Assembly (NCBI GenBank): GCA_043817315.1
Contig: JBDRGY010000016.1
Coordinates: 69,445 to 133,444, forward strand
Length of the DNA stretch: 64,000 nt
Reading direction: 5' to 3'
DNA from: Patescibacteria group bacterium
GTDB lineage: Bacteria > Patescibacteriota > Patescibacteriia > JBDRGY01
Below are positions 32,401 to 53,333 of this stretch, in pieces (within the stretch, counting starts at the first letter, position 1; each line of letters opens with the position of its first letter). Position numbers and translations under genes: made by a program. The notes beneath the pieces were generated by a model. It had not been told where the DNA came from. It searched no databases and saw only the letters and a list, made by a program, of their open reading frames with translations.

Positions 32401-32747
32401 TACTCGACAAGCGGATTATCAATTAGGCCCTCGACAAGCTGCTGGGTGGTTTGACTATCAGATTTTAGTAAAGTAATGTTTTGTCTGGCTAATCTGGTTT
32501 TTTCCGTAAGATTTTCGCCCCGAGCCAGTGCTGTCATTTTATTTATTCCCCGGGACTGATTGAGGTCCAGATCGCTTTTCTTAAATTTCACCAGCACTTC
32601 TCCCTCTATATAGTCAGCCTTTTGTCTGTCGAACTCGGGCAATCGACCAACGCTGGAGCTGGCCGTTAATCGAGGAAATAAAATTAAAACAGCTATCCCA
32701 AAAATTAGAATAGCCCCAAGTCGTTTTATTTTTTTTGAGATAACCAT
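29463..32747 (-). CDS. Secreted subtilisin-like serine protease (peptidase S8) fused to a C-terminal array of about 7 FG-GAP-like propeller repeats
   Basis: Catalytic triad motifs AVIDSGV (Asp), HGTHVAGVIAA (His), GTSMAAPHVAGLAALL (Ser). N-terminal signal/anchor and an I9-like propeptide. C-terminal repeats GG-x-P-x-[IV]R[IV]FG...[FM]AYD...FRGG[IV]...[GA]D[VI][DN]GDG..E[IL]IT homologous to those of the other three large proteins. Own promoter (TTGTCA, 17 nt, TATAAT) at 32780-32809 on the minus strand. Confidence 0.85.
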   Translation of the reverse strand: MVISKKIKRLGAILIFGIAVLILFPRLTASSSVGRLPEFDRQKADYIEGEVLVKFKKSDLDLNQSRGINKMTALARGENLTEKTRLARQNITLLKSDSQTTQQLVEGLIDNPLVEYVEPNYIYQASSTPNDTYYGVQWGLHNTGQTVNGTAGTADADIDMPAAWDVVAGASTSEATVAVIDSGVALYHPELSSQIEQGYDFVDDDANAYDFLDHGTHVAGVIAAVADNGQGIAGFGSDIKIVPIRVLGLTGFGTNADIVSGIYEAYDQGADVINMSLGGSGYSQAMYDAIEEGMTTYDCLIVAAAGNDATNNDGGTHQYPSDYDLDNIISVAATDQNDSLAGFSNYGTTSVDVAAPGVNIYSTVPYFEFDEGFENAVQPGFNGTDFTSSGTNNYWMTDTASGNVWAYGDTSYSPYQTSSDGVLTSDAINTAGQSTVIFQYYYYVEAEDSTLCFNDYLSADVYNGSSWTELGYYCGSATSGTGGFNVSSYKDSNMKVRFTWETNGSDSNYFGAAIDDIRIIYPTVALQNYAYMNGTSMAAPHVAGLAALLKSYNPNYTYAGIKDAILDNVETKSSLTGKVKTGGRINANNALSQTDATAPTATISYSTTAATNQSVVATLVPSETVTVTNNSGATTYTFTANGSFTFEFADSIGNPGSATATVANIDKTGPTDPTTYSVYSSSTATEALSDPATVSYRHPQPYFTWSAAVDAASDIKGYYVNLSTDLTADAEDGSFQTGTNFSVPTLTANGTYYLHLKSVDDLDNISDGTYFTYIYTLNRYIVTGPKSNGQSLVGVLNTDGTMVNYFYAYDMDFWGGINVAVGDINGDGISEIITSTREGGVPTIKVFDVDGNNLGWDFDAYDANFKGGINIGVGDIEGDGLYEIAVAPISGGSPNVRIFGLRNGEIVPTTENFMAYDVNFRGGIAVSIADVDGDGISELITTPTSRGGPHIRIFGMREGRYTPVTLGIMAYEESFRGGITSCAGDVNNDGKQETITGIVSSGGPHVRIFGVGRSQAYEILSPGFMAFDEASRGGVSVTAVDTNGNGYDEIITGVGGSGASYIRIYNQEGRLLSPEFLAYDVSYTGGVTIAAGFF

Positions 32748-36921: not shown

Positions 36922-37944
36922 TTATTCCTTTATTTCACTAACAGCCTTTACTATATCATCTCTAATTGCCTTTTGTAGTTTTTTATCTTCTTTCAGTCTC
37001 GCCTTGGCTGCTTCACGCCCTACGCCCAATTTATTCTCTTGATAGGTAAAGGTATTGCCTGATTTATTTATTATTTCGTATTGAACACCCGTATCTAACA
37101 AATCACCCGAAATGGAAATACCTTCATTGTACATAATGTCAAATTCAGTGGTTCTAAATGGTGCAGACACCTTATTCTTAACCACTTTACACTTGACCCT
37201 ATTGCCTACCACTATGTCACCCTTCTTGATCTGGGCAGAACGTCTAACTTCGATACGAACCGAGGAATAGAATTTCAGGGCAGTTCCGCCTGTGGTAGTT
37301 TCGGGATTTCCGAAGTAAACTCCAATCTTCATTCGAGTTTGATTGATAAAGATAACTACTGTTTTAGTTTTGCTGACTACCCCGGTCAGTTTGCGCAAGG
37401 CTTGGCTCATCAATCTGGCCTGCAGGGCCATGTGCTGATCTCCCATCTCGCCTTCAATCTCAGCCCTAGGTGTCAGGGCAGCTACCGAGTCAACTACCGC
37501 CACATCTACCGCATTGGAGCGAACCAGGGTTTCTAATATCTCTAGGGCTTGCTCCCCAGTATCCGGCTGAGAGAGTAATAGCTCATCTACCTTGACCCCG
37601 ATTTTCTTGGCATAAGCCGGATCTAAGGCGTGTTCGGCGTCAATAAAGGCGGCAGTTCCTTTTAGCTTTTGTACTTCGGCTACTATGTGCTGAGCCAAAG
37701 TAGTTTTGCCAGAAGCCTCTGGGCCGAATATTTCTATCACTCGACCACGCGGTACTCCGCCCACGCCCAAGGCTATATCCAATGACAGGCAACCGGTAGG
37801 CACCACATCTACATCCGACCTTCTGGCTTCGCCTAGTAGCATTATGGAACCATCGCCAAATCTTTCTTTGATTTGTTCAATGGCGGCTTGAGCTGCTTTG
37901 TTTTTTTCGTCGAGTTGACTTCGATTTTCCTCTTTAGTACTCAT
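36922..37944 (-). CDS. recA: Recombinase RecA
   Basis: Walker [11 protein letters not shown]1/L2 region; 340 aa. Only 10 nt separate it from the upstream RodZ-like gene. Confidence 0.95.
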
Positions 37945-37954
37945 ATTAATATAT

Positions 37955-38632
37955 TTAATTATTATTCCCGTCTTCTTTTTTGTAGAGAATTTGTCTGGTT
38001 ACGACCCTTTCTTGACTGCGTTCTTTGGATACAACAATGGTAATGGTATTAACCCCTTCTTGTAAATCGACAGTTTTTTCAAAGTGACCAGCTGGGTCGG
38101 CTAATACTGTTTGTCCGTTGATAACAATAATTGCCTCTGCCTCGGTCTGGCCAGCTACTATCACTTCAGCTTGATTAATTGTCAGATTGTCGGGCGGGCT
38201 CTCAAGGATTAGCTCGGGGGGGACAAAAATCATCTTAATCTGCAGTCCCAGATAGATCAATATGGCAACTACTATGACCATGATGACTGAGTTGCGGATT
38301 GTTTTGGGAGTAATTATGGATTTCGGCATTTCTTCGGATTTCCGTGGTTTTTTTACTCTGGTTACAATATTACTTTCTTTCTGATACAGACCTAAAACCA
38401 TATCTGGATTAACTTGCATATATTCGGCGTATTTTTTCAAAAAACTTTTAGTATAAATTTCACCAGGCAATCGGTTGTATTCACCTCTTTCTAAAAATTC
38501 AATATACTTTTTTTGAATTCCAAGTTCTTCTTCGATCTGCTCTAAAGAAACATTGGCCTCTTGGCGCATGCGGGCCAACCGCTCCCCCAAAGTAGTACTG
38601 CCGATTACCCTTTTACCACTAAAATCTTTCAT
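37955..38632 (-). CDS. RodZ-like protein (XRE-type HTH, single TM helix, C-terminal beta domain)
   Basis: HTH ([25 protein letters not shown]), one TM helix, C-terminal DUF4115-like region. Confidence 0.55.
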
Positions 38633-38638
38633 ACTCCT

Positions 38639-40894
38639 TTATTCAAACTTTTCTTCAGTCTTTTCTTCTGTTTCTTCTTCAGTCTCCTCTGCCTGGTTGT
38701 TATTCTCTTCTACTTCCTCGGCAGGGCTGGCTTTTTTTTCCCAAGCTTCTTCTAATATTTCACGCGGTTTGGCACCGTCAGCCGGACCAATAAAACCATG
38801 TTCTTCTAATATATCCAAAACTCTAGCGGCCCTTGCGTAGCCGATTCTCAAGCGGCGTTGCAGCAGAGAGGCCGAAGCCTTTCCAGCTCGCAAGATTACG
38901 TCTTTGGCTTCTTGTAGCAATTCCTCATCTTCTTCTAAATCAAAGTCTTCACTGGATTCGGCCGGGCCTTCTTTTTTGAGTACCTCTTCGTGAAAATCTG
39001 GCTTGGCGCGCTCTGAAATATATTCTACTACTTTTCTAATTTCTTCGTCCGCTAAAAATGCTCCTTGATACCTTCTTGGTTGCGAAATATCCGAAGAGCT
39101 GTAAAGCATGTCTCCACGACCCAGAAGTTTCTCTGCCCCGGAGTGGTCTAAGATAGTCCTGGAGTCAACTAATGAGGCTACGCTAAAAGCTATGCGGGCC
39201 GTAATATTGGCCTTAATCAACCCCGTTATTACATCTACTGACGGTCTCTGGGTGGCAACTATTAAATGAATACCAACTGCTCTGGCCATCTGAGCCAGTC
39301 TGGTTATGGCTGCCTCTACTTCATTGGCTGCTACACTCATCAAATCAGCTAATTCATCGATAACCAACACAATAAAAGGCATTTTCTCCTTGCTGGTGGC
39401 GTTGTAAGAATGGATGTTCCTTTTACCAGCATCTGATAATACTCGGAAACGATTGTCCATCTCTCTGACAATCCATTTTAAAGCATTAACGGTCTTGTCT
39501 GTTTCCGTGATAACCGGGGTCAATAAGTGGGGAAGTTTATTATAAACTGTAAATTCTACTCTCTTGGGATCAACCAGAATGAGTCTCAAGTCATTAGGAC
39601 TGTTTTGATAGAGAAGGCTGATAATAACGGCATTGATGCACACCGACTTTCCGGAACCTGTGGCGCCAGCAATCAAAAGGTGAGGCATGGAATCTAAATT
39701 GGCCATCCGGGACTTACCGGAAACATCTTTACCCAAAGGAATCATCAAACTTGATTTCCTCTTTTTAAAATCCTCTCCTACTAAAACCTCTCTCAGGCCG
39801 ACAATGGCTACTGTCTGGTTGGGGACTTCAATGCCCACTAACGATTTGCCGGGAATGGGCGCTTCTATCCTAAGCGGGTGGGCAGCCAAGGCCAGAGACA
39901 GGTCATTTTGCAAGGTGGTAATCTGCGACAATTTAATTCCCTGGGAGGGCCTTAGAGTATATTGAGTTACAGTCGGACCAACATTAACATCTCCCATCTC
40001 TACTGGTATACCAAAGTTTTCTAGGGTGCGTTTTATTTTTTCTAGATTGGCCCTGATATCACCGCTAGTCGGTTTGGAACCATTACTGTTTAACAAGTGA
40101 ATGGGCAAATCAATCTTGCCAATTTTGTGCTTGTCCCCCGGAAAAATCGCCATTTGTCCCTCGTCATTTTTTTCTTCGGCCACAATAATCGGGCCCTCTT
40201 TTTCCGCCCCATTCTCTGATCCTGCCATCTCTTTTTTCTGAAATTCTGGTTCTGATATACCTTCCCCCTCTTGGGGTAGTTCATCTTTTTTAAACCGGGT
40301 GCTATATCTGATACGGTTAATAAAATCACTAAGGCGGTTAAAAAAGTTTTTTAGAACTCCACCCTTGGCTAAACGGGCTAAGGTGGTATTAAACATGACT
40401 AACAGCGCAATGATCAAAAGTGCGATTAGGACAACCAAGGTGGCCCAACCGCCCATCATCTTCTGCAGAGGCCAAGCCAGAATTAAGCCGAAATAACCGC
40501 CCCCCTTACCCGAGGATATAGCTTCAAGACTCTCTTCGGGCCTATAGGTTAAATGCATCAAGCCAGAATAACTAAGCACCAGCAGGAACAATCCGATATA
40601 ATTTGATGTCCTAACTTGATATTTTTCCGGAAAAAGTAACAAATAGCCCAAAACAGCCAAAAGAATAGGTATAAACACTTTTCCCCAGCCGAAAAGATAA
40701 CGTAAACCGGTATCAATAAAATCCCCCACGCTGCCCGCCACATCCAAGAGACTCAGGAAAAAAATAAATGCCAAGGCGAAAAGGATTATTACGGCAATTC
40801 CTTTTTTGGTTTCAGCTTGTAAGAAAAATTTATCCTCCTTGGGGGAAGATTCATCTGATTTAGGGCGACGTTTTCTGGTGCCTTTTTGGGCCAT
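38639..40894 (-). CDS. ftsK: DNA translocase FtsK/SpoIIIE
   Basis: N-terminal 4-5 TM helices, motor domain with Walker A GATGSGKS, C-terminal gamma winged-helix (LLQRRLRIGYARAARVLD). Confidence 0.9.
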   Translation of the reverse strand: MAQKGTRKRRPKSDESSPKEDKFFLQAETKKGIAVIILFALAFIFFLSLLDVAGSVGDFIDTGLRYLFGWGKVFIPILLAVLGYLLLFPEKYQVRTSNYIGLFLLVLSYSGLMHLTYRPEESLEAISSGKGGGYFGLILAWPLQKMMGGWATLVVLIALLIIALLVMFNTTLARLAKGGVLKNFFNRLSDFINRIRYSTRFKKDELPQEGEGISEPEFQKKEMAGSENGAEKEGPIIVAEEKNDEGQMAIFPGDKHKIGKIDLPIHLLNSNGSKPTSGDIRANLEKIKRTLENFGIPVEMGDVNVGPTVTQYTLRPSQGIKLSQITTLQNDLSLALAAHPLRIEAPIPGKSLVGIEVPNQTVAIVGLREVLVGEDFKKRKSSLMIPLGKDVSGKSRMANLDSMPHLLIAGATGSGKSVCINAVIISLLYQNSPNDLRLILVDPKRVEFTVYNKLPHLLTPVITETDKTVNALKWIVREMDNRFRVLSDAGKRNIHSYNATSKEKMPFIVLVIDELADLMSVAANEVEAAITRLAQMARAVGIHLIVATQRPSVDVITGLIKANITARIAFSVASLVDSRTILDHSGAEKLLGRGDMLYSSSDISQPRRYQGAFLADEEIRKVVEYISERAKPDFHEEVLKKEGPAESSEDFDLEEDEELLQEAKDVILRAGKASASLLQRRLRIGYARAARVLDILEEHGFIGPADGAKPREILEEAWEKKASPAEEVEENNNQAEETEEETEEKTEEKFE

Positions 40895-40957
40895 AGTTCT
40901 AATATTAAGTTACTACATTTTAGCATTTTTGGTTGCTTTTAGCAAGGTGAAAACAGC

Positions 40958-40987
40958 CAAAAAAGACGGGTCTACCCCGTCTTTTTT
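40958..40987. terminator. Bidirectional terminator; left boundary of the GC-rich island
   Basis: AAAAAAGACGGG-ucuac-CCCGUCUUUUUU. Confidence 0.7.
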
Positions 40988-41003
40988 GGCTACTTACTGC
41001 TTT

Positions 41004-41216
41004 TTACCCGCCGGGCGGACCAACCGCTTGGTCAGGTTTGTCCTCGGTGCAGCAAGAATGAGGATGATCTGACCAGCAGGTTTTTATCTGTCCCCAGGTG
41101 GTACAAGTACCGTATCTAACTGGTCTAGCATCAGCCGCTTGAATTTGCAGGGCGACAACTGCGACTATGGCCACCAATAAGCAGGAGGCCATAATAACGA
41201 CATTTCTTTTGCTCAT
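41004..41216 (-). CDS. Small Sec-secreted 4-cysteine peptide, paralog 1 (mature about 39 aa)
   Basis: Signal peptide with A-D-A cleavage site, then RPVRYGTCTTWGQIKTCWSDHPHSCCTEDKPDQAVGPPGG. Strong RBS AGAGGGGGUGAG 5 nt upstream. Confidence 0.6.
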   Translation of the reverse strand: MSKRNVVIMASCLLVAIVAVVALQIQAADARPVRYGTCTTWGQIKTCWSDHPHSCCTEDKPDQAVGPPGG

Positions 41217-41268
41217 AATCTCACCCCCTCTCCTAAGAGGTTAATATTTAATAATTCACTTAATAAAT

Positions 41269-41469
41269 TTATTGAGGGTCGCCTACCTGGCTTTTAGGCT
41301 CTCCGCAGCAGGTGGCTGGGTTAGAGCCAAAACAGGATTTTATCTCCCCCCAGGTATCACAAGGCCCTTGTGTTTGTGCCCCTCCTCGGGCCTCGGCCAT
41401 CTTAACTCCAACCCCAGTGGCGATTAAAAGTAATGCCAGGCATACGCCCAGAATTATCATTTTTCTCAT
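41269..41469 (-). CDS. Small Sec-secreted 4-cysteine peptide, paralog 2
   Basis: Signal peptide (A-E-A site), then RGGAQTQGPCDTWGEIKSCFGSNPATCCGEPKSQVGDPQ. Same RBS AAAGGGGGUGAG. Confidence 0.6.
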   Translation of the reverse strand: MRKMIILGVCLALLLIATGVGVKMAEARGGAQTQGPCDTWGEIKSCFGSNPATCCGEPKSQVGDPQ

Positions 41470-41509
41470 AGACTCACCCCCTTTCTTTGAATCTTTTTAA
41501 TAACTATTT

Positions 41510-41719
41510 TCATTGTGGCTGCTCAATTTCGTCGACTATATGCTGGCAACACGGGTGATCGTTGCCTGGGTCTGCATCAAAACATTTCTTTAGTTCTGAC
41601 CAGGGGATATAACATCCATCAAGGTTATTTATCCTGGCTTCTGAAGTTTTTATTTTTACCCCCAAAATAACCATAGCAATTAGCAAAAAACAAGCGCTAA
41701 TAATAACTGTTTTTTTCAT
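41510..41719 (-). CDS. Small Sec-secreted 4-cysteine peptide, paralog 3
   Basis: Signal peptide (S-E-A site), then RINNLDGCYIPWSELKKCFDADPGNDHPCCQHIVDEIEQPQ. Same RBS AAAGGGGGUGAG. Confidence 0.6.
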   Translation of the reverse strand: MKKTVIISACFLLIAMVILGVKIKTSEARINNLDGCYIPWSELKKCFDADPGNDHPCCQHIVDEIEQPQ

Positions 41720-41831
41720 AAGCTCACCCCCTTTCGGTAGTCATTTAATGGTAAAACCTCCAATAAGGGCCGCTTGGCGATGAACGTATCACCACCAAGC
41801 GGGACCAATGAAGGTTCTACTCACAAGCTGG

Positions 41832-44753
41832 CTACTTGAGAAGCACCATCTTGCGCGAAGAACACTGTTGCCCTGTCTCCAGCCTATAGAAGTAAACGCC
41901 GGAGGCAACGGCTCTTCCATGGTTATCCCGACCTTGCCAGACCGCAGCCTGCTGACCAGCTTCCTGCTCTTCGTCAACAAGGTTGCAGACCAGTCGGCCC
42001 GCCACATCATAGACATAGAGCTGAACTGGGCCAGCTTGGCTAAGGCTGTAGGCGATGGTGGTAGTCGGATTGAAAGGATTGGGATGGTTGGGCAGCAACC
42101 GGAATGAGAACCCAGCTTCGGTGGCTTCCGCAACCCCGGTAGCGATGTCTTGCCAGCCAATCGGCAGAGTAGGATCACCCAGGATCGAGTACATCCGGAT
42201 CTGGTTATGAGTCTGAGGACACTCCTCGTAGGCCAGCTGCTTTGCTGCCAGCGTGGCCTCACCTAGTGTAGTTTCGTTCCCCATGTAGAGCTCACCCGCC
42301 AGATAACTGAAGATTTTGGAGTTGGTGTACTGATCTGAGATATCTGTAGGCCCCATCCAGGCCCTGGCTCCCTTGCCAGGTGCTGTCAGGAAGTCAGTAG
42401 CCATGTCCAGGCCCCAGCTGGATTCACCTCTGGTGAAATCAGCCATGCCGCAGCAGAAGCCGAAAACGATAGGACTGGTCCAGTTTTCTACCAAGTAAGT
42501 CATGTCGAAGTAGTTATTCCACTTGGTCAGAATAGACCCGTTGCTGATCCGGTTGGCCAAAGTGCTGAAGTAGAACTTGTAGTCGATTCCCGCATTCTGG
42601 ATAGCACAATCTGCATCCCGCCTGGCGGAATAGGAGAAAGGGTCATCCGAATAACGGTAAATCGTGGTACTGGCAGCCAGCTGCGGATCAAACTGACCAT
42701 AGATACTCATGGCCAGCGTCTCGGCATAGGCACCGCGGCAGCCTGACAGATTCCAGTTGCCAATCATCAGACCAGCCTGACAACGACCAGAGCGATCAAG
42801 ATGCCATTCTACAAACTTGTCGGCAACGATCCACAGCTCCTGGAGAGTATTGATTGGCACGCGGCCTACGGCTATGTTTTCTTGTCCATCACCGTCGGTA
42901 TCTCCGTACCAACCATCCCAGGCATAGAGATCATCGTCGCTGTAGTAACAACCGTCCCAGAGTACGTAGTAGCTTTGAATCAGATTCTGCCCTGGGAGCA
43001 GTCGATTGGCATCACCCCACAAAACAACGTGGGTAGGCAAGGGGTCCATAGCCAGAATGTAGTCTTTGATGTCCTGCGGCTGAGAAGTGGTCCCGAAATC
43101 TTCCAGGGCCACGAACTGAACCAGATGACCTTCTAGATACTCCAGGGTATAAACCCAGTAGTCCAAATGGTCAATCCAATCCGCCGGGCAGACACAGAGC
43201 ACATCCGGGTCAGTCAGCCCCCCATCCTTAGGTTCGCCATCTGGTTGCGGAGGTGTCTGATACTTGGGCTGGTAGACAACCGGCTCCACAAGTTCTGGTG
43301 GTTCCGGCCAGCTAGACAGTACCTCGGTGGAAAGATGCTCCAAGACATTCCCGCTTATCTCCATCTCAACAATCTGATAGAGAAAGTCGGGCTGTCCAAC
43401 AACATCACTCCAGTAATACTGGGCCCCTTGACCATCACTGCCCTGATGCCAGATCGGTTCACTGACTGTCTGCCAGGTAAATCCATCATCGAAAGAGCAT
43501 TTAACCTGGAAGTAGTCAGTGTCCTTTTCTGACTCAGTTTCCCAGTAGACGATTACCTGCCCACCTTCTTCTACGGCAGTCACTCCCAGCACTGATGCAG
43601 CTGGCGGTTCACCGTATTCGGAATAGTAGGCGGTTACGTAATCGTCATGGCTGGGGGGTCGGCAGTTTTTGCCGCTGTAAAACGGCGGTTGACCAAGGGG
43701 GTCAGTGTTGCCGTTAAGATAGCGGTCTTCACTATTTCTGCCTTTGACCTTGTCCCAGTTGACCCAACGAGGAAACTCACCGTAGGCGTGTACCCGGATG
43801 TCGTATTCCAGCTTGGTGTCGGAGTCTTTCAGCTCAATGTTTTCCAGCTCGGCATAGATTGAGGGCATACCAAGGATATCTTCTATGTTATCCTCTGCCT
43901 CAATCGGCGTGTCGAACTCGACATAGGCATCGTTGAAGCTGGATGACTGAAAGACGTAACCGGAATCCGGATAAACCGCACAAACAGCTGGAAACAACAC
44001 TGTATTGTCGTGGCCAACTATAGACCAGGCACCGTTGGTAGAAAACATGTGCTGATAGCCATGTTGAACCGTTCTTTTGGTCCGTCCTCGCTCGGCATTG
44101 AGATAGGTACAGAAGGTATCAATGCTAGCAAAGGCTTGAGTGTTAATCAGCTCTGGACAGTGACCAATGGCAGTGCCTGCTCCCCATTCATCCAGCCAGA
44201 GAGCACTAAAACAGTATTCGGCCAAGACAATAGACCGTTCATCCCCGGCAAAATCCCGACAGATATGAGGCCTAACTCCAATGCCATAATATCCTGTATA
44301 CCCGAAGTAGGCAGGATAAATGTCATCGGGGTAGCTGTATTGACCCCTTCTGACGTAGCGAATCAGGGCAGAGTCCCGGTCAGCCGAATGTCTGTAGGCT
44401 TCGATCATTAAACCATCAGGGCCATTGGCATCATTCTCGGTGCCGTGTGAAGAGATGGCCAGAATGGAAATCCCAGGCGTGCTGATCACGCTTCTGAAAT
44501 CAGCGATGGAGAACCGGGGAATGGTGTCAGGAGCCGGAGAGGTAACGTAGTACTTTTCCATGTCCAGATGGCTTTCTGTTTCCATCCGGTCAAAGGGAGC
44601 ACTATCGTCACCAAACTGAAACTCCCAAAGCAACAGATTAACCACTGTGCTGGTGTGCACTGTCCGATACTGATCAATGCGCTGCCAGGCTACATTGACC
44701 ACGGGTATCAGTAGCAGTCCTACCAACATGATTGTTGTGATTCTCTCTTTCAT
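41832..44753 (-). CDS. Large secreted protein with a T9SS-type C-terminal sorting domain (Por_Secre_tail-like) and a putative clan-CD (gingipain/C25-like) cysteine-peptidase region
   Basis: N-terminal signal peptide. The C-terminal 85 aa or so, FSFRLLPNHPNPFNPTTTIAYSLSQAGPVQLYVYDVAGRLVCNLVDEE...AVWQGRDNHGRAVASGVYFYRLETG...RKMVLLK, matches the type-A T9SS CTD pattern (NPFNP-x-T-x-I-x-Y-x-L, YD-x-x-GR-x-V, W-x-G-x-D-x-x-G-x-x-V-x-SG-V-Y-F-Y-R-L, K-[ML]-x-L-[LI]-K). An H-G dyad (ISSHGTEND) and a hydrophobic-strand Cys (IVLAEYCFS) suggest a caspase-fold protease. Real start is the ATG at 44753 (RBS AGGGGGG 8 nt upstream); the track ORF begins at an in-frame GTG. GC clearly higher than flanks. Confidence 0.6.
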   Translation of the reverse strand: MKERITTIMLVGLLLIPVVNVAWQRIDQYRTVHTSTVVNLLLWEFQFGDDSAPFDRMETESHLDMEKYYVTSPAPDTIPRFSIADFRSVISTPGISILAISSHGTENDANGPDGLMIEAYRHSADRDSALIRYVRRGQYSYPDDIYPAYFGYTGYYGIGVRPHICRDFAGDERSIVLAEYCFSALWLDEWGAGTAIGHCPELINTQAFASIDTFCTYLNAERGRTKRTVQHGYQHMFSTNGAWSIVGHDNTVLFPAVCAVYPDSGYVFQSSSFNDAYVEFDTPIEAEDNIEDILGMPSIYAELENIELKDSDTKLEYDIRVHAYGEFPRWVNWDKVKGRNSEDRYLNGNTDPLGQPPFYSGKNCRPPSHDDYVTAYYSEYGEPPAASVLGVTAVEEGGQVIVYWETESEKDTDYFQVKCSFDDGFTWQTVSEPIWHQGSDGQGAQYYWSDVVGQPDFLYQIVEMEISGNVLEHLSTEVLSSWPEPPELVEPVVYQPKYQTPPQPDGEPKDGGLTDPDVLCVCPADWIDHLDYWVYTLEYLEGHLVQFVALEDFGTTSQPQDIKDYILAMDPLPTHVVLWGDANRLLPGQNLIQSYYVLWDGCYYSDDDLYAWDGWYGDTDGDGQENIAVGRVPINTLQELWIVADKFVEWHLDRSGRCQAGLMIGNWNLSGCRGAYAETLAMSIYGQFDPQLAASTTIYRYSDDPFSYSARRDADCAIQNAGIDYKFYFSTLANRISNGSILTKWNNYFDMTYLVENWTSPIVFGFCCGMADFTRGESSWGLDMATDFLTAPGKGARAWMGPTDISDQYTNSKIFSYLAGELYMGNETTLGEATLAAKQLAYEECPQTHNQIRMYSILGDPTLPIGWQDIATGVAEATEAGFSFRLLPNHPNPFNPTTTIAYSLSQAGPVQLYVYDVAGRLVCNLVDEEQEAGQQAAVWQGRDNHGRAVASGVYFYRLETGQQCSSRKMVLLK

Positions 44754-44766
44754 GGCATCCACCCCC

Positions 44767-45387
44767 CTAATTCGAAGAGTTGGATGGCTGCTCAGTTGCC
44801 TTCTCGGTCACGATCAAGCCGTCCTGGTAGTACACTCTGCGACCTTGCTGCAACAAGCGAGCCAACAACGCCATGCGAGATTTGGCCATAGCTTCGTCTG
44901 TTCTAGTCGGACTAGTCCTGGCCTGGAACACCTTGAGCTTGGGAATAGGAAAGTCCCGTTCCTTAACCTGGATACTTCCATTGTCCAAGACCTTAACCCA
45001 CTCGTAGATGTCAGGGTGCTGGCCATACACTGCGTCAGCAACCTGCTGGGTAATTTCTTTCTTGTCACGACCAGGTTCTGCATCGACCAGCTGCTGGAAC
45101 AGGCTATAGGCCTGATCATCCAGCTGATCCTTGATGTTGACTGAATCGGGCTGTTGCATCTTGGTGTCGCCAAGGGTCGGGTAAATCCTGACTCCATTGA
45201 CGAAGGCCTCGCTCCCCACAACCTTAAGGAAGTAGGGGCCAAGCACTTCCTGCTCACCCTCTTCATCAACTACCACGAACTGACCCGTCTCTATCAAGAG
45301 ACTGTCAGGCAGCGCGGGCGTGTCGTTGGCTACTACAGTCACGGCCATCAGGGCCACGATCATCATTGCGAGACTAAGGTGTCTCAT
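44767..45387 (-). CDS. Secreted hypothetical protein (206 aa), first gene of the island operon
   Basis: Start trimmed to MRHLSLAMMIVALMAVTVVA (ATG at 45387, RBS AAAGGAG). Signal peptide. Its stop TAG overlaps the RBS of the 976-aa gene. Confidence 0.5.
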   Translation of the reverse strand: MRHLSLAMMIVALMAVTVVANDTPALPDSLLIETGQFVVVDEEGEQEVLGPYFLKVVGSEAFVNGVRIYPTLGDTKMQQPDSVNIKDQLDDQAYSLFQQLVDAEPGRDKKEITQQVADAVYGQHPDIYEWVKVLDNGSIQVKERDFPIPKLKVFQARTSPTRTDEAMAKSRMALLARLLQQGRRVYYQDGLIVTEKATEQPSNSSN

Positions 45388-45532
45388 GGTGGTCACGCTC
45401 CTTTCAGGATTACTCCAACTGCCAATTGACCAATCGATCTGTTGCGGCAAGAAAACACCTCCTCTCAACCACGTTAGACGTTTACTGCGCTTTCCTTTCT
45501 TAGAAAACCATGGATTTTCAAGGTACGTATCC

Positions 45533-45552
45533 AAAAAAAACCTCATATGAGG
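45533..45552 (-). terminator. Intrinsic terminator on the minus strand about 200 nt downstream of rpoC; right boundary of the island
   Basis: Minus strand reads GAAAG-CCUCAUAUGAGG-UUUUUUUU. Confidence 0.65.
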
Positions 45553-45752
45553 CTTTCAAGCTATAGTCCGTCTATAACAAGACGTGCCGGTTTCGCTACT
45601 AGCTCCCTGCAGTTCAAGCGACCAGATACAAACTACAGTTCTTAGCCTCACCTTTTGTTTCCGTCGGAATAGCACTTCTGTCAATAGAACTTATCCACAG
45701 GGGTAACAAAAAACCCGATTTCTTAGCACTTTTATCAGGTTTCTTGACTATT

Positions 45753-48700
45753 TTAGGTTGGTTTATAGCCTGTTCCAGCTGGTATTTGACGACCAATAAT
45801 AACATTTTCCTTAAGGCCTCTTAGCCTATCAACTTTGCCTGAAACAGCTGCGTCAATCAGCACCCTGGCTGTCTCCTGGAAAGAGGCGGCAGACAGAAAA
45901 CTCTCGGTTGATAACGAAGCCTTGGTTATGCCCAGCAATAAATTGTCAGCTACTGCTTCTTTCTTATTATCTTTCTGTGCCTTGGCATTGGCAATGACAA
46001 ACTGGGAGCGTTCAACAACTTCTCCAGACAATAATTCAGTTTCGCCGGCATCCCGAATGTAAAAGCGGGAAAACATTTTTCGTATTATTATCTCAATGTG
46101 TTTATCGTTTAACTTCTGTCCTTGGGAAGAATAGATGTATTGAATCTCTTTGATAACGTATTTTTCTACTGCCCCTCTGCCCCTGAGACGATATAAATTG
46201 TGTACATCGATACTGCCTTCGGTTAATTGATCACCGATGTTAACTAGATCACCCTCATTTACCCAGACAGTAAACCTGGTGGGCACCAAACATTCGTTTA
46301 TCTTTTCTTTTTCAATAATTATTTCCAATGAGTTATCTTTTATCTTGACCACACCGCCTGCCTTGGCCACTACTTTTTGATCTTTGGTCTCGTATAGCAA
46401 GTCGTCTTTTTTGACTTCTTGTTTATCTTTTACCCTGAGATTCTTTTTAGCACTCTCCTTTAGCGGATATTGATCTCTGTCAACTTGGGTGTGCCGGATC
46501 TTTATCAGTTTCTGTCTGGTTTTTCCATCTTTGGCTGTTGTTTCTTCGATCGATTCAACTTTGCCATCAACTTCCGAAAGCACGGCTGATTTTTTTACAG
46601 GACGCGCTTCAAATAATTCTTCCACTCGGGGCAAACCTTGGGTAATATCCAAACCTGCTACTCCGCCAGTATGAAAAGTTCTCATGGTCAATTGGGTCCC
46701 TGGTTCTCCAATACTCTGCGCCGCGATAATGCCTACGGCAGCTCCTAGCTCTACCAACTTGTTATAAGCCAAGTCATGCCCGTAGCATTGACGACAGATT
46801 CCTCTTTGAGCCTGACAAGTTAAAACATTGCGGGCTCTGACTTCTTGGGGATCTATTTTCGTTAATTCTTCAGCTATCTTTTCGGTAATCAACTGATTCT
46901 TGTCTACTATCGTTTTCTTGGTTTTGGGGTTAACTATTTTTTCCAGACAAACTCGGCCCACTACCCTCTTTACCAGATTTTCACCCATTTCCTCACTTTC
47001 TTTTTTAGTAAAGACCACCCCTTCTCTATCACCGCAATCATCCAAAGAAATTACCATGTCTTGGGCCACATCAACCAGCCTTCTGGTCAGATAGCCGGCG
47101 TTAGCAGTTCGTAGGGCGGTATCAGCCAATCCTTTTCGGGCTCCATGGGTAGAGATAAAATATTCTAAAACATCAAATCCTTCTTTGAAACTTCCTTTAA
47201 CGGGCAGCTCAATGGTTTCTCCGGCCGGGTTAGTCACCAATCCTTTCATTCCCATCATCTGGGTAATTTGCGGCCAAGAACCTCTGGAACCAGATTCTAC
47301 CATTTGATAAACAGAACCCGATGAATCAAGGGCATTCTTGCTAAGTTGGGTAATCTGGTCTTTGACGGCGGCCCAAACTTCTACTATTTTAATATGTCTC
47401 TCCTCTGCGGTCAGCAGGCCAGTCTCAAAATGACTGTTGATTTCATCAACTTTTTTGTCGCCTTCTTCGACCAGTTTTTTCTTTATTTCCAGGGGGGGTA
47501 AGTCATCCATGCCCCAACTGATACCTGATAGGGTAAGAAATTCCAAACTGACTCTCTTGATCTGGTCCAGAAATTCAGCTGTCTCGGCAGAACTCCATTC
47601 TTGTAAAGTGCGACTAATAATGTCTTTCAGAATCTTTTTATTCATCACCTCATTAATATAGCCAAAAAATGGCGGCAAAATTCTATTGATCAGGACCCTA
47701 CCGCAATTAGTTTCTACTAATTTACCGTTTATTCTAACTTTAATTTTTTGCTGGATAGTTATCTGGCCCAAACGATAAGCCATAATTACTTCGTCAAAAG
47801 AAACAAAGTGTTTAAGCTTATCCTGGTCTCCTTCTTGCAATATAGTCATATTATAACAACCTAAAACAATGTCCTGAGAAGGTGTGGTTACCGGTTCGCC
47901 GGTAGCTGGTTTCAGAAGGTTGTTGGATGATAGCATAATGGTGGCGGCTTCTTTCTTGGCTTCTTCGGTCAGGGGCAGATGCACAGCCATTTGGTCACCA
48001 TCGAAATCGGCATTAAATGGAGCACATATTAGTGGATGAATCTGGATGGCCTTGCCTTCAATCAAAACTGGCTGGAAAGCTTGGATTCCCAAACGATGAA
48101 GGGTGGGGGCCCTATTAAGCAGCACATGAGAGCCTTTGGTTATTTGTTCTAGAATATCCCATACTTCCGGCCGGCCCGATTCGATCAATCTGGTGGCCGA
48201 ACGAACATTGTGAACGAATTCATCTTTGATCAGTCTGCTTATTACAAATGGTTTAAAAAGTTCCAGGGCCATTGTCTTGGGAATGCCGCATTGTCCGATC
48301 TTCAAATAGGGGCCAATAACAATGACAGAACGACCGGAATAATCAACACGCTTACCCAGTAAGTTTTGGCGGAATCTACCTTGTTTGCCTTTTAACATGT
48401 CAGCTAGGGATTTAAGCTGTCTCTTCTGTCCTGTGGAAGCGGTAACTGTTTTACCGTGACGGGCTCCGTTATCAATAAGAGCATCCACTGCCTCCTGCAA
48501 CATTCTCTTTTCATTACGGGTAATAACCTCAGGAGCATTAAGCTCCTTGAGGCGTTTAAGACGATTGTTTCGATTAATAACTCTTCTATACAAATCGTTC
48601 AAATCCGAAGCAGCAAAACGTCCGCCGTCCAGCTGGACCATGGGGCGCAAATCGGGTGGAATAACAGGAACGGTTGTCAAAATCATCCACTCCGGCTTGA

Positions 48701-49628
48701 TGTTGTTAGCCTTCAGGTTGGACACTAGTTTTTGACGACGCAGTATTTTTCTTTTACGATTTTTATTTGAAGAAGCAACTTTCTTCTTTGACTCGGTAAT
48801 CTCTTTTTCTAGATTTATCGATCTCAGCAATTTGTGTATGGCCTCTGCTCCAATGCCCGCTTCAAAAACATGTCCGTATTTTAGGGACAAATCCTGATAA
48901 GTATTTTCAGAAATTATCTGGAGCGGTTTAAGGTTGCGTAATTCTTTCTTGGCTAAATCAGCTGCCTCTTCCAGTTCTTTCAGTTCTTCCTCTTTTTGGC
49001 GAGCGTTGTTTACTAATTCCTGATCAGCCCAGGCTTCAGTTTCTTTCTTGTTTTTGTCATCCTTGGCTTTTCCTAATTTTTGGGTTTTCTGCTGTTTGAC
49101 CGAACTTACTTTTTGGTTAAAGCTATTGTCGATATTTTTCTTCTTTGAATGAACCTCTTGGTCGATCTGTTTTAAGGTTTCTTCCCGTAGTTCCTCATCA
49201 ACAGCTATAATAATAAAACTGGCAAAGTAGATAACCTTTTCTAGGCTTTGCACTGAAAGGCCCAGGATTAATCCAATTTTTGAGGGCACTCCGCGCAAAA
49301 ACCAGATATGGGAAACTGGAGCGGCCAGATCAATGTGACCCATTCTTTCTCGACGCACAATAGAACGAGTTACTTCAACTCCGCACTTATCACAAATAAT
49401 ACCTTTATAGCGAATGCGTTTGTATTTTCCGCAGTAACACTCCCAGTCCTTGGAGGGGCCGAAAATTCTTTCACAAAACAGGCCATCTTTCTCTGGTCTT
49501 TGGGTACGATAATTAATCGTTTCCGGCTTGGTTATTTCCCCATTGGACCATTTATGGATAACATCCGGGGAAGCCAGTTTTAGCTTGATGGCATCGAAAT
49601 TGATGTTTCTTTCGTTGTCTTGTGCCAT
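45753..49628 (-). CDS. rpoC: DNA-directed RNA polymerase subunit beta'
   Basis: Zn finger CYCGKYKRIRYKGIICDKCG, catalytic NADFDGD, 1291 aa; 2 nt after rpoB. Confidence 0.97.
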   Translation of the reverse strand: MAQDNERNINFDAIKLKLASPDVIHKWSNGEITKPETINYRTQRPEKDGLFCERIFGPSKDWECYCGKYKRIRYKGIICDKCGVEVTRSIVRRERMGHIDLAAPVSHIWFLRGVPSKIGLILGLSVQSLEKVIYFASFIIIAVDEELREETLKQIDQEVHSKKKNIDNSFNQKVSSVKQQKTQKLGKAKDDKNKKETEAWADQELVNNARQKEEELKELEEAADLAKKELRNLKPLQIISENTYQDLSLKYGHVFEAGIGAEAIHKLLRSINLEKEITESKKKVASSNKNRKRKILRRQKLVSNLKANNIKPEWMILTTVPVIPPDLRPMVQLDGGRFAASDLNDLYRRVINRNNRLKRLKELNAPEVITRNEKRMLQEAVDALIDNGARHGKTVTASTGQKRQLKSLADMLKGKQGRFRQNLLGKRVDYSGRSVIVIGPYLKIGQCGIPKTMALELFKPFVISRLIKDEFVHNVRSATRLIESGRPEVWDILEQITKGSHVLLNRAPTLHRLGIQAFQPVLIEGKAIQIHPLICAPFNADFDGDQMAVHLPLTEEAKKEAATIMLSSNNLLKPATGEPVTTPSQDIVLGCYNMTILQEGDQDKLKHFVSFDEVIMAYRLGQITIQQKIKVRINGKLVETNCGRVLINRILPPFFGYINEVMNKKILKDIISRTLQEWSSAETAEFLDQIKRVSLEFLTLSGISWGMDDLPPLEIKKKLVEEGDKKVDEINSHFETGLLTAEERHIKIVEVWAAVKDQITQLSKNALDSSGSVYQMVESGSRGSWPQITQMMGMKGLVTNPAGETIELPVKGSFKEGFDVLEYFISTHGARKGLADTALRTANAGYLTRRLVDVAQDMVISLDDCGDREGVVFTKKESEEMGENLVKRVVGRVCLEKIVNPKTKKTIVDKNQLITEKIAEELTKIDPQEVRARNVLTCQAQRGICRQCYGHDLAYNKLVELGAAVGIIAAQSIGEPGTQLTMRTFHTGGVAGLDITQGLPRVEELFEARPVKKSAVLSEVDGKVESIEETTAKDGKTRQKLIKIRHTQVDRDQYPLKESAKKNLRVKDKQEVKKDDLLYETKDQKVVAKAGGVVKIKDNSLEIIIEKEKINECLVPTRFTVWVNEGDLVNIGDQLTEGSIDVHNLYRLRGRGAVEKYVIKEIQYIYSSQGQKLNDKHIEIIIRKMFSRFYIRDAGETELLSGEVVERSQFVIANAKAQKDNKKEAVADNLLLGITKASLSTESFLSAASFQETARVLIDAAVSGKVDRLRGLKENVIIGRQIPAGTGYKPT

Positions 49629-49630
49629 AT

Positions 49631-52600
49631 CTATTTCTTAGTCTTATCTTTTTTAGTAGTTTTCCTGGCTACAGTCTCTATCTTCTCCTCTTTCTTTTCT
49701 TTTATATCTTCTTTTTTGGCTGCCGGCTCCTTTTTCTCGGGAGCTTCTTTGACACTTTCTTTGTTTCCCGCCTTCTCGTTTAGCAGCTCCACATCTAAAC
49801 ACAGACCTTTTAGTTCTCTAACTAAAACATTAAATGATTCTGGAATATTAAGTCGCCTTATTGGTTCTCCTTTGATAATGGCTTCGTAGGCTTTAGAACG
49901 TCCGGCTACATCATCAGATTTGATAGTTAAAATTTCCTGCAGGGTATTGGCTGCGCCGTATGCTTCTAGTGCCCAAACTTCCATCTCGCCAAACCTTTGA
50001 CCACCAAATTGAGCCTTACCGCCCAGGGGTTGCTGGGTTACTAACGAGTAAGGACCGATTGAGCGCTGATGGATTTTATCTTCAACCAAGTGGTTGAGTT
50101 TTAACATGTAAATGATGCCTACGGTCACCGGCTGATTGAAGGGGTCACCAGTTCTGCCGTCGTAAAGAATAACTTTACCGTCTTCAGGCCAGCCTACCTT
50201 TTTCAATTCCTGTTTAATAATTTCTTCGTCTACTCCGTCTAGGACCGGGCTGACAGCTTTATACCCCTGCTTGACTGCCGCGATGCCCAGATGAGTTTCT
50301 AAAATCTGACCGATATTCATACGAGAAGCAACTCCTAGCGGATTCAGAATAATATCAACCGGAGTTCCATCTGCCAAGAAGGGCATGTCCTCTTGCGGAA
50401 TAATTCTAGAGATGACTCCTTTGTTCCCATGGCGTCCCGCCATCTTGTCACCCACTTGGACTTTGCGAAGCTGGGCTACGCTAACCTGGAATGATTTAAT
50501 AACGCCGGAGGGAAGTTTGTCTCCGTTTTCTCTGGAAAATATTTTTATGTCCACTACCTTACCGTGCTCACCGTGTTCTAAATATAGCGAACTGTCTTTT
50601 ACGTCTTTAGCTTTTTCTCCAAAAATTGCTCTCAATAGTTTTTCTTCGGCTGATAATTCTGTTTCGCCTTTAGGGGTGATTTTTCCGACCAAGATATCGC
50701 CAGAAGAAACTTGGGCTCCGATCCTGACCACTCCTTCTTCATCCAGGTCTTTCAGTTTCTCTTCAGAGATATTGGGAATGTCTCTGGTAATTACTTCTGG
50801 GCCCAATTTGGTGTCTCGAATATCAACTGAGTAGTCTTCGATGTGAATTGAGGTATACATATCTTTATGCACCAGTCGCTCTGAAATCAAAATAGCGTCT
50901 TCGAAATTACCGCCCTCCCAGGGCATAAAGGCAACCATGATATTTTGTCCTAGTGCTAACTCTCCACTTTCTGTGGCTGCTCCGTCGGCCAATAGATCGC
51001 CTTTCTTTACCTTGTCTCCTCTTCTGACCCTGGGCCTTTGATTCATGCAAGTTGAAGCGTTGGATCTCTTAAACTTTCCCAGCTGATACTCTTGAAGGTT
51101 GCCACCACTTTCCAGCACTGCGATGTGATCAGAATCACATTCAACAACTTTACCATCTTTGGCGCAAATAATGGTATGTCCGGAATCATAAGCCGCCCTT
51201 CTTTCTACACCAGTGCCCACTACCGGTGCCTGGGGATTAACCAGGGGAACTGCTTGCCGTTGCATATTGGTACCCATCAGGGCCCGAACAGCATCATCAT
51301 GTTCTAAAAAAGGAATTAGAGAGGTAGAAACCGAGACGATTTGGGACGGAGAAACATCCATGAAATCTACTTTAGATACACTTTCTAGGGTTGGTTCTCC
51401 TCGTTTCCTGACCTCAGCTTTATCTTCAATAAAATATCCGTTGTCATCAATCGGGGTAGTAGCTGCAGTGGTAATATTACGCTCTCCACCGGCTGCATCC
51501 AAATAAACTATTTCGTCGGTAACTCGGGGCTTTATCGGTATGTTGGTAATGGCCTTGTGTTTGGCCAGTTCTTTGGCCAGTTCTTTGGTTATTTTATCTC
51601 CTACTTTAGCTATTGAACTTTTGCTTTCAGGGTCAATTATGTCTTCACGCAATATTTCACCCTCAGTTACCTTGGGATCGTTGGCTAAATCATGGATAAC
51701 TTTTCGCATGGGGGTTTCAATAAACCCATACTCATTAACCCGGGCATGAGAAGCAAGGTGGCCCACCAGACCAATATTGGGACCTTCCGGGGTGGCAATG
51801 GGGCAGATACGTCCGTAATGAGTGCGGTGAACATCACGCACATCAAATCCGGCCCGTTCCCTCGAAAGCCCGCCAGGGCCCATGGCAGATAATCTTCTCT
51901 TGTGTTCCAGCTCGGCCAAAGGATTAGTCTGGTCCATAAACTGAGAAAGTTGAGAAGACATAAAAAATTCTTTCACCGCTCCGATAACCGGTCGGGCATT
52001 GACCAACTGGTTGGGGGTAAGAGTATCGATATCTTTGGTGCTCATCCTGTCACGAACAATCCTTTCCATGCGAGCTAGGCCCACTCTGAATTTATTTTGT
52101 ATCAACTCGCCAATGGCCCTAACTCGACGGTTTCCCAAATGATCAATGTCATCTGGTGCTTCTTGAGTATTGTTGAGACGGATAATTTCTTGGATGATAG
52201 CCACCAGGTCTTCTTTCTGCAAAACCCTGGTTTCTTTATTGACCGGCATCTTGAAACCGAAACGTTGATTCAGTTTATAGCGACCGACCCGGCCAAAGTC
52301 ATAACGATCAAAATTGAAGAACATGGAAAATATTAATGACCTGGCATTATCAACCGTGGCCAGGTCACCGGGTCTAATTCTTTTATAAACTTCCTTCAGT
52401 CCTTCTGCCTCGGACTTGGCGATATCTTTATCGATAGTGTTCTGGATATATTTCACATCGGGGTCGGTATCTGTTTCTTTAAATAAATTCACAATATCTT
52501 CATCAGAAGAATAGCCAAAAGCTCGGAGCAGACTGGATACGGCCACTTTTCTTTTGCGATCAATTTTTACGTAGATTACTCCCGTTCCATCGGTTTCCAT

Positions 52601-53098
52601 CTCCAGCCAGGCTCCCCGGTTAGGAATTATCTTGGCTCCATAGCAGCGTCGGCCTCGAAAAAGTTCAGATGTAAAAAAAACACCAGCTGATCTGATTAGC
52701 TGGCTAACTACTACTCTTTCAATTCCGTTTATAATAAAAGTCCCTCTGTCTGTCATCAAGGGAAAATCACCAAGGTAAATTTCTTGTTCCTTGGCGTCAT
52801 TATTTTTTTTGTTAACAAGCTTGGCCCTTACTCGAATTGCTGCTTCGTAGGTCAGGTTCTTTTTCTTGGAAGTATTTTCGTCAAAGCGCGGATCATCAAA
52901 ATAATGATCGCCGAAATATAATTCCAGCTGCCTAGCGTAATCACGAATAGGAGATATCTCCTCTAACAGTTCCTTAAGCCCGTTTTTTAAGAACCAATCG
53001 TAAGAAGTCTTTTGGATCTCGATCAGGTCAGGTAAAGGAATGGCTTCGTGCAGCTTAGTAAAGTACCGACGCCCCTCTCTCTCGGTCTGAAATGACAT
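49631..53098 (-). CDS. rpoB: DNA-directed RNA polymerase subunit beta
   Basis: 1155 aa; conserved beta-subunit blocks ([13 protein letters not shown], rif-cluster region). Confidence 0.97.
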
Positions 53099-53333
53099 AA
53101 AAAATTCACTCCTTTTCTTAAGTAATCTTCTGAAAAGGAGAATAAGACTTTATTAAAGTCCTTAATTAGCAATATATATGCAATGTTGATAATAACAGAA
53201 TTACAAGGACTGTCAAGGGAATATTTTAGTAATTGAGTAAAGATTGCTAACCTTAGCTAAAAAAGGACAGTTTATTACTATTGTTTTGCTAAAATTAGCC
53301 AAATTACTAACAGGATATCCACATGGATATACC

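Follow-up and report, generated by a model that had tools for sequence, protein, structure and literature searches.

A predicted c-di-GMP-II riboswitch precedes a conserved cassette of secreted proteins between rpoC and ftsK in Patescibacteria

The stretch of DNA analyzed here, referred to as the window, comprises 64,000 nucleotides from a Patescibacteria group bacterium (GenBank assembly GCA_043817315.1, contig JBDRGY010000016.1, positions 69,445 to 133,444), whose nearest named relatives based on FtsK are Kerfeldbacteria and Falkowbacteria. Patescibacteria, or Candidate Phyla Radiation (CPR) bacteria, are thought to live attached to other cells, and their ways of sensing conditions and controlling surface factors are poorly understood. 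In this genome, the core genes rpoC and ftsK are separated by a block of five genes, all on the minus strand, as the first-pass annotation of this DNA had stated: a gene for a secreted protein that we call pX, a gene for a large secreted protein with a peptidase C25-like domain, and three genes for small peptides (A, B, and C). The block would form a transcription unit that begins directly past the rpoC terminator, and it has a bidirectional terminator at its end. Its most informative feature, a match to the class II cyclic di-GMP (c-di-GMP-II) riboswitch in the leader, had been missed by that annotation. In the order of transcription, and in window coordinates, the features of the block are as follows.

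45753-45755, minus strand: rpoC stop codon, read from the sequence.
45707-45739, minus strand: rpoC intrinsic terminator, read from the sequence (stem CCUGAU/AUCGGG and then a U-run), 14 nt past the rpoC stop codon.
45679-45698, minus strand: promoter-like box GTGGATAA and then TTGACA (45679-45684), recognized by conservation.
45576-45659, minus strand: aptamer of the c-di-GMP-II riboswitch class (Rfam RF01786; 69.0 bits, gathering score 53.5).
45533-45572, minus strand: expression platform, in which an antiterminator strand (GACUAUAG...AGCCUCAU) overlaps an intrinsic terminator.
45533-45556, minus strand: riboswitch terminator, a hairpin at 45541-45556 with U8 at 45533-45540.
44767-45387, minus strand: pX, a 206-aa secreted protein encoded by the first cassette gene, signal peptide MRHLSLAMMIVALMAVTVVA.
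41832-44753, minus strand: C25-like multidomain secreted protein, 973 aa, with its likely start at the ATG at 44753, as in the NCBI record.
41748-41824 (77 nt), minus strand: long two-tier hairpin between the stop of the C25-like gene and the first peptide gene, -50.9 kcal/mol, z -5.5.
41510-41719, minus strand: peptide A, 69-aa precursor, Sec signal ending in SEA before R, mature part C-x3-PWSELKKCF-x9-CC, ribosome-binding site (RBS) AAAGGGGGTGAG.
41269-41469, minus strand: peptide B, 66-aa precursor, mature part CDTWGEIKSCF-x6-CC, RBS as for peptide A.
41004-41216, minus strand: peptide C, 70-aa precursor, mature part CTTWGQIKTCW-x6-CC.
40957-40989, both strands: bidirectional intrinsic terminator AAAAAAGACGGGGTAGACCCGTCTTTTTT, at the end of the cassette and a short distance before the ftsK promoter region, -29.1 kcal/mol, z -8.1.

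The hairpin and U-run of the rpoC terminator are kept in three related loci, designated L032, L040, and L042 (loci from other genomes are named in this way throughout). In the promoter-like box that follows, GTGGATAA is invariant in all five aligned lineages, and TTGACA is common to the window, L032, L040, and L042. The -10 element of this box is weak and a sigma-70 scan made no call there; judged by its conservation, the box is the probable start of the cassette transcript, with a putative promoter role. In L041, the rpoC terminator and the promoter box are separated by a GC-rich insert of about 140 nt (5600-5740), which has no Rfam match and is lacking from the other lineages.

The aptamer matches the RF01786 covariance model over its full length (model positions 1 to 84 of 84; E value of 1.8e-14) and lies 189 nt upstream of the pX start. 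RF01786 was also detected upstream of pX in L041 (56.2 bits) and L048 (57.1 bits), both of which share the aptamer/terminator arrangement of the window, and 130 kb of loci from other Patescibacteria yielded no riboswitch whatsoever. The terminator at 45533-45552, which the first-pass annotation had placed as the boundary of the block past rpoC, is thus part of the riboswitch platform, and the terminator of rpoC itself is the one at 45707-45739. In the minimum-energy fold of the free leader (-41 kcal/mol), the 5' halves of the aptamer (GUGAGGCU ... CUGUAGUU) and of the terminator (GACUAUAG ... AGCCUCAU) pair with each other, and with the aptamer fold enforced, the terminator is able to form (-29.5 kcal/mol). 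The free leader of L041 adopts the same antiterminator fold (-57 kcal/mol), and in the window, L041, and L048 leaders taken together, 93% of the antiterminator helix is paired, with one compensatory change from U-A to C-G. As the terminator and the aptamer do not overlap and the strand competing with the terminator is part of the aptamer, we infer an OFF switch, in which bound c-di-GMP would lead to termination: binding would lock the 5' half of the aptamer and free AGCCUCA, allowing the terminator to form, and the cassette would then be expressed at low c-di-GMP.

Between the riboswitch terminator and the pX start (window 45388-45532, L041 5990-6117, and L048 233-345), the three leaders also contain a strong Shine-Dalgarno-like sequence, AGGAGGT(G/T). 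After this sequence, the window has an in-frame TTG that would lengthen pX by 21 aa, and L048 has a 7-codon upstream open reading frame (ORF); in addition, ATTGGTCAnTnGGCAGTTGG is common to the window and L041 leaders between the terminator and the pX start. This region could encode a leader peptide, provide an alternative start, or act as an RNA element.

Neither pX nor the three peptides have a match in Pfam, NCBIfam, PADLOC, PHROGs, or the PDB sequences. Proteins of 200 to 264 aa that are weakly similar to pX precede the C25-like gene in L032, L040, L041, L035, L036, L038, L048, and L049, and the TAG stop codon of pX in the window falls within the RBS (TAGGGGGGTGGA) of the C25-like gene. 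The tight coupling of the block described in the first-pass annotation therefore holds at this junction, but it is interrupted farther on by the 77-nt hairpin between the C25-like gene and the peptide genes. A perfect inverted repeat of 16 nt connects the interior of pX (45093-45108) and the last codons of rpoC (45764-45779), 655 nt apart; about 0.003 such repeats would be expected by chance over the 5.2 kb searched, and it is not kept in L032, L040, or L041.

The C25-like protein had been called at 976 aa from the GTG at 44762, and the ATG at 44753 is the likelier start. It consists of a signal peptide, an uncharacterized N-terminal part of about 500 aa, a Peptidase_C25 domain at residues 522 to 867 (in ORF numbering; PF01364, 87.7 bits against a Pfam cutoff of 23), and a FlgD-Ig/type IX secretion system (T9SS) type A domain at residues 894 to 973. 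The latter domain was recognized by NCBIfam TIGR04183 (T9SS type A; 36.8 against 23) and Pfam FlgD_ig (29.3 against 27), and its score with Pfam Por_Secre_tail was 24.2, under the cutoff of 27. Judged by eye, this C-terminal beta-sandwich appears to be the best-conserved part of the protein. The PorU model NF033707 scored only 51.5 bits against a cutoff of 420, with the C-terminal domain as the best-scoring stretch. When the family profile was compared with the PDB, the best matches were PorU (6za2; E value of 6e-19), RgpB (4ief; 3e-14), and Kgp (2e-11).

The catalytic residues were assessed in an alignment of 11 family members with fragments of RgpB, Kgp, and PorU. The catalytic Cys (C771) aligns with the motif of all three references and is present in 11 of 11 members, whereas all 11 have Thr, Ser, Pro, or Gln in the column of the GHG histidine, which precedes the Cys by about 33 residues. 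A nearby His occurs only in L041 and is missing from its closest relative, L048, and there is no invariant His anywhere along the C25-like protein. As the His of the defining His/Cys dyad is missing, this is not a conventional C25 peptidase, and the label of putative protease in the first-pass annotation is doubtful. The invariant Arg738 had been considered as a replacement for the His on the basis of its spacing, and was dropped when it failed in the alignment of more sequences and the reference fragments.

The description of the protein as T9SS sorted fares similarly: the type A domain is there, but the sorting is doubtful. Cells of CPR bacteria are expected to have no outer membrane. The T9SS is an outer-membrane system of Bacteroidota/FCB (PMC10202324, PMC12398890). 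No T9SS components were found among the annotated ORFs of the window, which is a small part of the genome, and T9SS sorting of the C25-like protein in a CPR cell is unlikely. In a cell of this kind, the C-terminal beta-sandwich would have a role other than T9SS export.

The three peptides are paralogues, each with a Sec signal and an AxA-type cleavage site, and their genes repeat every ~250 nt. As previously annotated, they have the same strong RBS (GGGGGTGAG, in the form AAAGGGGGTGAG twice and AGAGGGGGTGAG once). The mature peptides follow the pattern C-x(0-3)-[STP]-W-[GSAT]-x-[ILV]-K-x-C-[YFW]-x(3-9)-P-x(1-4)-C-C. An exhaustive search with a profile built from the three identified about 20 more small secreted proteins with a WGxIK motif, and all members whose contig was examined are encoded directly downstream of a C25-like gene. 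Across cassettes, the third-gene motif is (S/T)W(G/S)x(I/L)K and is bracketed by cysteines in the CPR versions, with one to three small peptides per cassette. The motif occurs without cysteines in L035 (ITWSKLKSRY) and L036 (VSWGALKTGY), and outside CPR the third gene can also code for a fusion of 432 aa that has a C-terminal sorting domain of its own. Within the family, some members have tandem motif repeats, two carry an additional cysteine-less SWGxIKALY at the C terminus, and in two the motif is located at the N terminus of larger proteins with the same C-terminal sorting domain. The peptide profile also matched FG-GAP-type repeat proteins (NWGQVKK), which we judged to be chance motif similarity. 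In this context, the long FG-GAP/integrin-looking proteins P0144, P0148, P0153, P0161, and P0163 to P0165 contain a repeated GGxDNWGQVKKLTASD unit whose core, WGxxKK, resembles the peptide motif.

The hairpin that precedes the peptide genes has equivalents in L032, L040, L041, and L048 with differing inner stems, and z scores range from -3.5 to -6.1 over the five CPR lineages including the window. It coincides with the boundary between foreign and native base composition described below and may be terminator-like and attenuate read-through, or may stabilize the transcript between the cistrons. Since so stable a hairpin stands between the C25-like gene and the peptides, riboswitch control of the peptides is less certain than that of pX and the C25-like gene. 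The closing bidirectional terminator, which the first-pass annotation had recognized, is present and very stable; it corresponds to our inverted repeat I1 and was missed by a simple scanner, probably because its A/T runs pair. A weak match to the Rfam small RNA SpF25 at 40915-40991 (28.2 bits against 48) is just this terminator.

Looking beyond the window, we found the order of pX, C25-like gene, and WGxIK-motif gene at 11 loci, which include six CPR lineages. The cassette is full in the window, L032, L040, L041, L048, L035, L036, and L049 and partial in L043, L046, and L038. The CPR loci are the window, L032 (in three samples), L040, L041, L048, and the partial L043; the remaining five (L035, L036, L049, and the partial L046 and L038) lie in contexts that are GC rich or otherwise unlike those of CPR, such as an 84-kb contig of 65% GC with citrate lyase, aconitase, and a PAS histidine kinase (L035) and a contig of 51.5% GC (L036). 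The C25-like family is a very rare one: among billions of proteins searched, these were the sole members returned, and later protein searches, whose word filter missed known members, added one distant relative. A metagenome scan with FtsK gave no contig beyond those already in the set. As the same arrangement occurs in independent assemblies from several samples, an assembly chimera was rejected.

The cassette lies directly upstream of ftsK in five CPR lineages (window, L032, L040, L041, and L043), and rpoC is seen upstream of it in three of the relatives (L032, L040, and L041); L043, on a shorter contig, has the C25-like gene, peptides, and ftsK. In L048 the cassette is followed by a short ORF resembling the FtsK N terminus, and this locus is probably a sixth lineage with the cassette in that position. 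Identities between the window and these relatives are 62 to 78% for FtsK and 70 to 79% for RpoC. The first-pass annotation had proposed a check for relatives with ftsK directly next to rpoC, and no such empty junction was found among the loci examined. In the clade of the window, the gene order is a Mur-ligase gene, rpoB, rpoC, the cassette, ftsK, a rodZ-like gene, and recA, whereas more distant, Falkowbacteria-like Patescibacteria (L001 to L008, compared with window positions 36922-54629) have ftsK, the Mur-ligase gene, rpoB, and rpoC; because of this difference in order, the cassette is located at a synteny breakpoint. One sister lineage, L042 (GCA_030617445.1; FtsK 77 to 78% identical to that of the window), starts with the same post-rpoC terminator and promoter box and then carries an unrelated GC-rich pair before ftsK (223-1147), namely, a 239-aa secreted protein and a 73-aa protein with a DxDxDG calcium-binding-like motif (DLDPDGDGHISWAEF), neither with a Pfam match. 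As a different secreted-protein pair occupies the same place in a sister lineage, the rpoC/ftsK locus is accessory and variable. Among the window ORFs we found no integrase genes, and the block has no tRNA target and no flanking direct repeats; a search for att-like direct repeats recovered only the tandem peptide-gene repeats.

Base composition had been the original reason for treating the block as an island of about 4.6 kb. GC content is indeed elevated, at 0.50 to 0.56 in 500-nt windows from ~41750 to 45500, compared with 0.38 to 0.47 in the flanks and 0.445 for the whole 64 kb. The proposed sliding-window check bore this out, with 42001-45500 as the most extreme stretch of the window in 3-kb windows (GC z of 3.2; composition-normalized tetranucleotide correlation to the window of 0.55, z of -4.1; L1 distance z of 4.0). 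However, the GC-rich island extends over ~3.6 kb and covers pX and the C25-like gene only. Their GC contents at third codon positions (GC3; 0.65 and 0.58, respectively) are the top two among 43 ORFs, and the peptide genes look native, with host-like GC3 values of 0.34 to 0.48 (0.34 for A and 0.48 for B). All CPR lineages measured have a raised GC3 in pX and the C25-like gene; the effect is strongest for the window, L032, and L040 and weakest for L048. The tetranucleotide signature of the flanks is common across the CPR lineages (r of 0.80 to 0.88) and has a correlation of ~0 with the signatures of L035 and L038; the signature of the window cassette correlates with those of the L032 and L040 cassettes (r of 0.74) and less with those of L035 and L038 (0.43 to 0.46). 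The cassettes of L035 (r of 0.70) and L036 (r of 0.75) match their own local genome signatures.

The rest of the window consists of housekeeping genes and several FG-GAP surface proteins, and its other large secreted proteins show no raised GC3. Four of them are large predicted FG-GAP proteins (6726-11117, 11320-16497, 29463-32747, and 56921-59461) that also combine CarboxypepD_reg, S8 subtilase, or CARDB domains; in the first, local GC reaches ~0.50 by way of the first and second codon positions and not the third.

Cassette proteins diverge much faster than the flanks, with C25 identities of 76%, 36%, and 27% where RpoC is 90%, 79%, and 70% identical. Between L032 and L040, identity at 4-fold degenerate sites is 0.53 for the C25-like gene and 0.66 for pX, compared with 0.47 to 0.60 for rpoC, ftsK, and rodZ. 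As this synonymous divergence equals that of the flanks, the L032/L040 cassette was inherited together with them, which refutes a recent insertion; between the window and L032, synonymous sites are saturated. The C25 tree disagrees with the host tree: a Syntrophobacteria-binned sequence falls within the group of the window, L032, L040, and L043, and L041 and L048 group with L046 and L049, so that the CPR sequences form two subfamilies. In addition, the window C25 is only 36 to 38% identical to those of L032, L040, and L043, which are 62 to 79% identical to one another, although all host FtsK distances are ~75%.

Based on these observations, we consider it fairly probable that the conserved cassette, whose three components are all Sec secreted, belongs to a unit that begins past the rpoC terminator and is under the control of a c-di-GMP-II riboswitch with a platform of the terminator type. 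The cassette itself is best read as old, horizontally derived, and fast evolving at a variable locus rather than as a fresh island. The proposal of a horizontally acquired module in the first-pass annotation is therefore retained insofar as the two large genes have a foreign composition, homologues exist outside CPR, the C25 tree is incongruent, and L042 carries other content, but the module is neither recent nor strain specific. The cassette would have entered the CPR clade horizontally from GC-rich bacteria that use such C-terminal domains, and the rpoC/ftsK junction would since then have been a site of cassette turnover. Its function would be that of second-messenger-gated secreted or surface proteins. 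The small peptides may be the cognate ligand or substrate of the C25-like protein, with binding or cleavage at the conserved Lys, and the module would act outside the cell in surface remodeling or in attachment and detachment.

Several observations weigh against parts of this interpretation. L032 and L040 have the cassette without a detectable riboswitch. The covariation of the antiterminator is statistically weak, with three sequences and 178 of 500 shuffles scoring as high. No GGDEF or HD-GYP motif was found in the 64-kb window or the related loci, a small share of each genome, which leaves the source of c-di-GMP unproven. The hairpin ahead of the peptide genes could uncouple them from the riboswitch. 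The C25-like domain, given the absent catalytic His in the alignment, may not cleave anything. AlphaFold2 models are of little help here: that of pX, from a single sequence, has a predicted local distance difference test (pLDDT) score of 43.8 and is unusable, and that of the C25-like protein, from a five-sequence alignment, has a pLDDT of 45.7. Finally, if the cassette is ancient in this clade, its lasting high GC3 lacks an explanation; either the cassette has been replaced repeatedly in place or something keeps the GC content up.

The last point leads to the alternative that survives best, although we regard it as unlikely, namely, that this is a native, fast-evolving locus whose GC richness stems from selection or local mutation bias and whose copies outside CPR were exported or misbinned. 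It would account for the conserved position, for a riboswitch leader kept between the deepest-branching lineages (the window on the one hand and L041 and L048 on the other), for the codivergence of cassette and flanks in L032 and L040, and for C25 identities that fall broadly with host distance. The binning of L038, moreover, is uncertain, as its contig is only 3.1 kb long. By contrast, misbinning sits poorly with L035, where the cassette matches the genome signature of its own 84-kb contig, and a purely native history sits poorly with two CPR subfamilies that each have non-CPR-like relatives (L046 and L049 in the case of L041 and L048) and with a window C25 so distant from those of L032, L040, and L043 at even host distances. 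Nor do the other large secreted proteins of the window share the raised GC3.

Less probable still, in our view, is a peptide-maturation or bacteriocin-like system, in which the peptides would be an antimicrobial or signaling product, the C25-like protein the processing enzyme, and pX an immunity protein or chaperone. The multiple peptide genes, each with a strong RBS and a Sec signal, and their invariable linkage to a C25-like gene would suit such a system, as would the invariant Lys of the motif for an enzyme family specific to Lys/Arg. Peptide C even has a faint match to the lactococcin 972 family (TIGR01653; E value of 0.028), but its score is 14.7 bits against a cutoff of 32.1, and peptides A and B have no match. 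The block also lacks both a dedicated exporter and a membrane immunity gene, its C25-like protein is without the catalytic His, and a third gene that is cysteine-less or a 432-aa fusion with a sorting domain outside CPR fits a recognition tag better than a toxin. Equally improbable is a recent genomic island bringing a T9SS-exported active Cys protease and three Cys-rich peptides between two core genes: the strongly atypical composition, the homologues in non-CPR genomes, the T9SS type A domain, and the other content of the junction in L042 would fit, but the cassette is upstream of ftsK in five lineages, probably six with L048, over 62 to 78% FtsK identity, it codiverges with its flanks in L032 and L040, it lacks integrase genes and flanking direct repeats, its C25-like protein lacks the catalytic His, and its T9SS type A domain belongs to an outer-membrane system of Bacteroidota/FCB (PMC10202324, PMC12398890), with no T9SS gene in this Patescibacteria window.

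Placed next to known systems, the preferred reading of a riboswitch-controlled secreted cassette resembles that of Clostridia, where c-di-GMP-II riboswitches likewise combine a full-length RF01786 aptamer with a terminator platform upstream of genes for secreted or surface proteins; the differences are the Patescibacteria host and the predicted OFF logic. In Clostridioides difficile, the targets of class II riboswitches are adhesin and type IV pilus genes, which are stimulated by high c-di-GMP, and PPEP-1/ZmpI is under a class I c-di-GMP riboswitch, with its adhesin substrates CD2831 and CD3246 under class II, such that the secreted PPEP-1 and the adhesins that it cleaves are controlled inversely (PMC11477304). 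By analogy, this circuit may be the closest functional parallel to the cassette: in both, a second-messenger riboswitch would gate a secreted protein of a protease family that is encoded alongside proteins with a short motif, and the predicted expression at low c-di-GMP matches that of PPEP-1. However, PPEP-1 is an M34 metalloprotease with sortase-anchored adhesins, whereas here the protein is C25-like and small free peptides are the putative partners; further, the protease-family protein and its partners are encoded at one locus here, and the catalytic dyad is incomplete.

For the C25-like protein itself, PorU, RgpB, and Kgp (MEROPS C25) provide the best solved-structure matches, with an aligned catalytic Cys, and PorU likewise joins a C25 domain and a C-terminal T9SS-type beta-sandwich in one protein. 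It differs from PorU and the gingipains in that it falls far short of the cutoff of the PorU model, that none of the 11 members has the GHG His, and that ~500 residues at its N terminus are unique; in addition, neither an outer membrane nor a T9SS is expected in its CPR host. With genomic islands and hot spots, the block shares the atypical composition, the accessory content, a junction that holds different cassettes in different lineages, and a gene tree at odds with that of the host, but it is without an integrase, a tRNA target, or direct repeats, is retained over deep divergence, and codiverges with its flanks in at least one pair. The riboswitch class, the C25 family, and the T9SS-type domain are therefore of known kinds, while for the combination, the His-less C25 subfamily, pX, the WGxIK family, and the CPR setting we found no description in the libraries and papers searched; literature searches returned nothing relevant on the WGxIK motif or on c-di-GMP riboswitches in Patescibacteria.

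Tentatively, these features might together represent an undescribed extracellular recognition system, a possibility to which we give limited credence, in which a His-less C25-like receptor or processing protein would operate with pX and WGxIK-tagged peptides, disulfide framed in CPR, and which would move between phyla and, in one clade of CPR episymbionts, reside at a cassette-exchange hot spot next to rpoC under a c-di-GMP riboswitch. If so, these ultrasmall cells would use c-di-GMP to time the display or shedding of a host interaction module, and the lasting GC anomaly would stem from foreign versions that repeatedly replaced the cassette in place. The locus also cautions that a strong compositional island can be old, conserved, and codiverging with its host. 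A three-gene cassette that crosses phyla with a sharply conserved motif offers an entry to the role of a His-less relative of the gingipains and PorU, and a c-di-GMP-II riboswitch ahead of secreted-protein genes provides a testable handle on second-messenger control in CPR bacteria.

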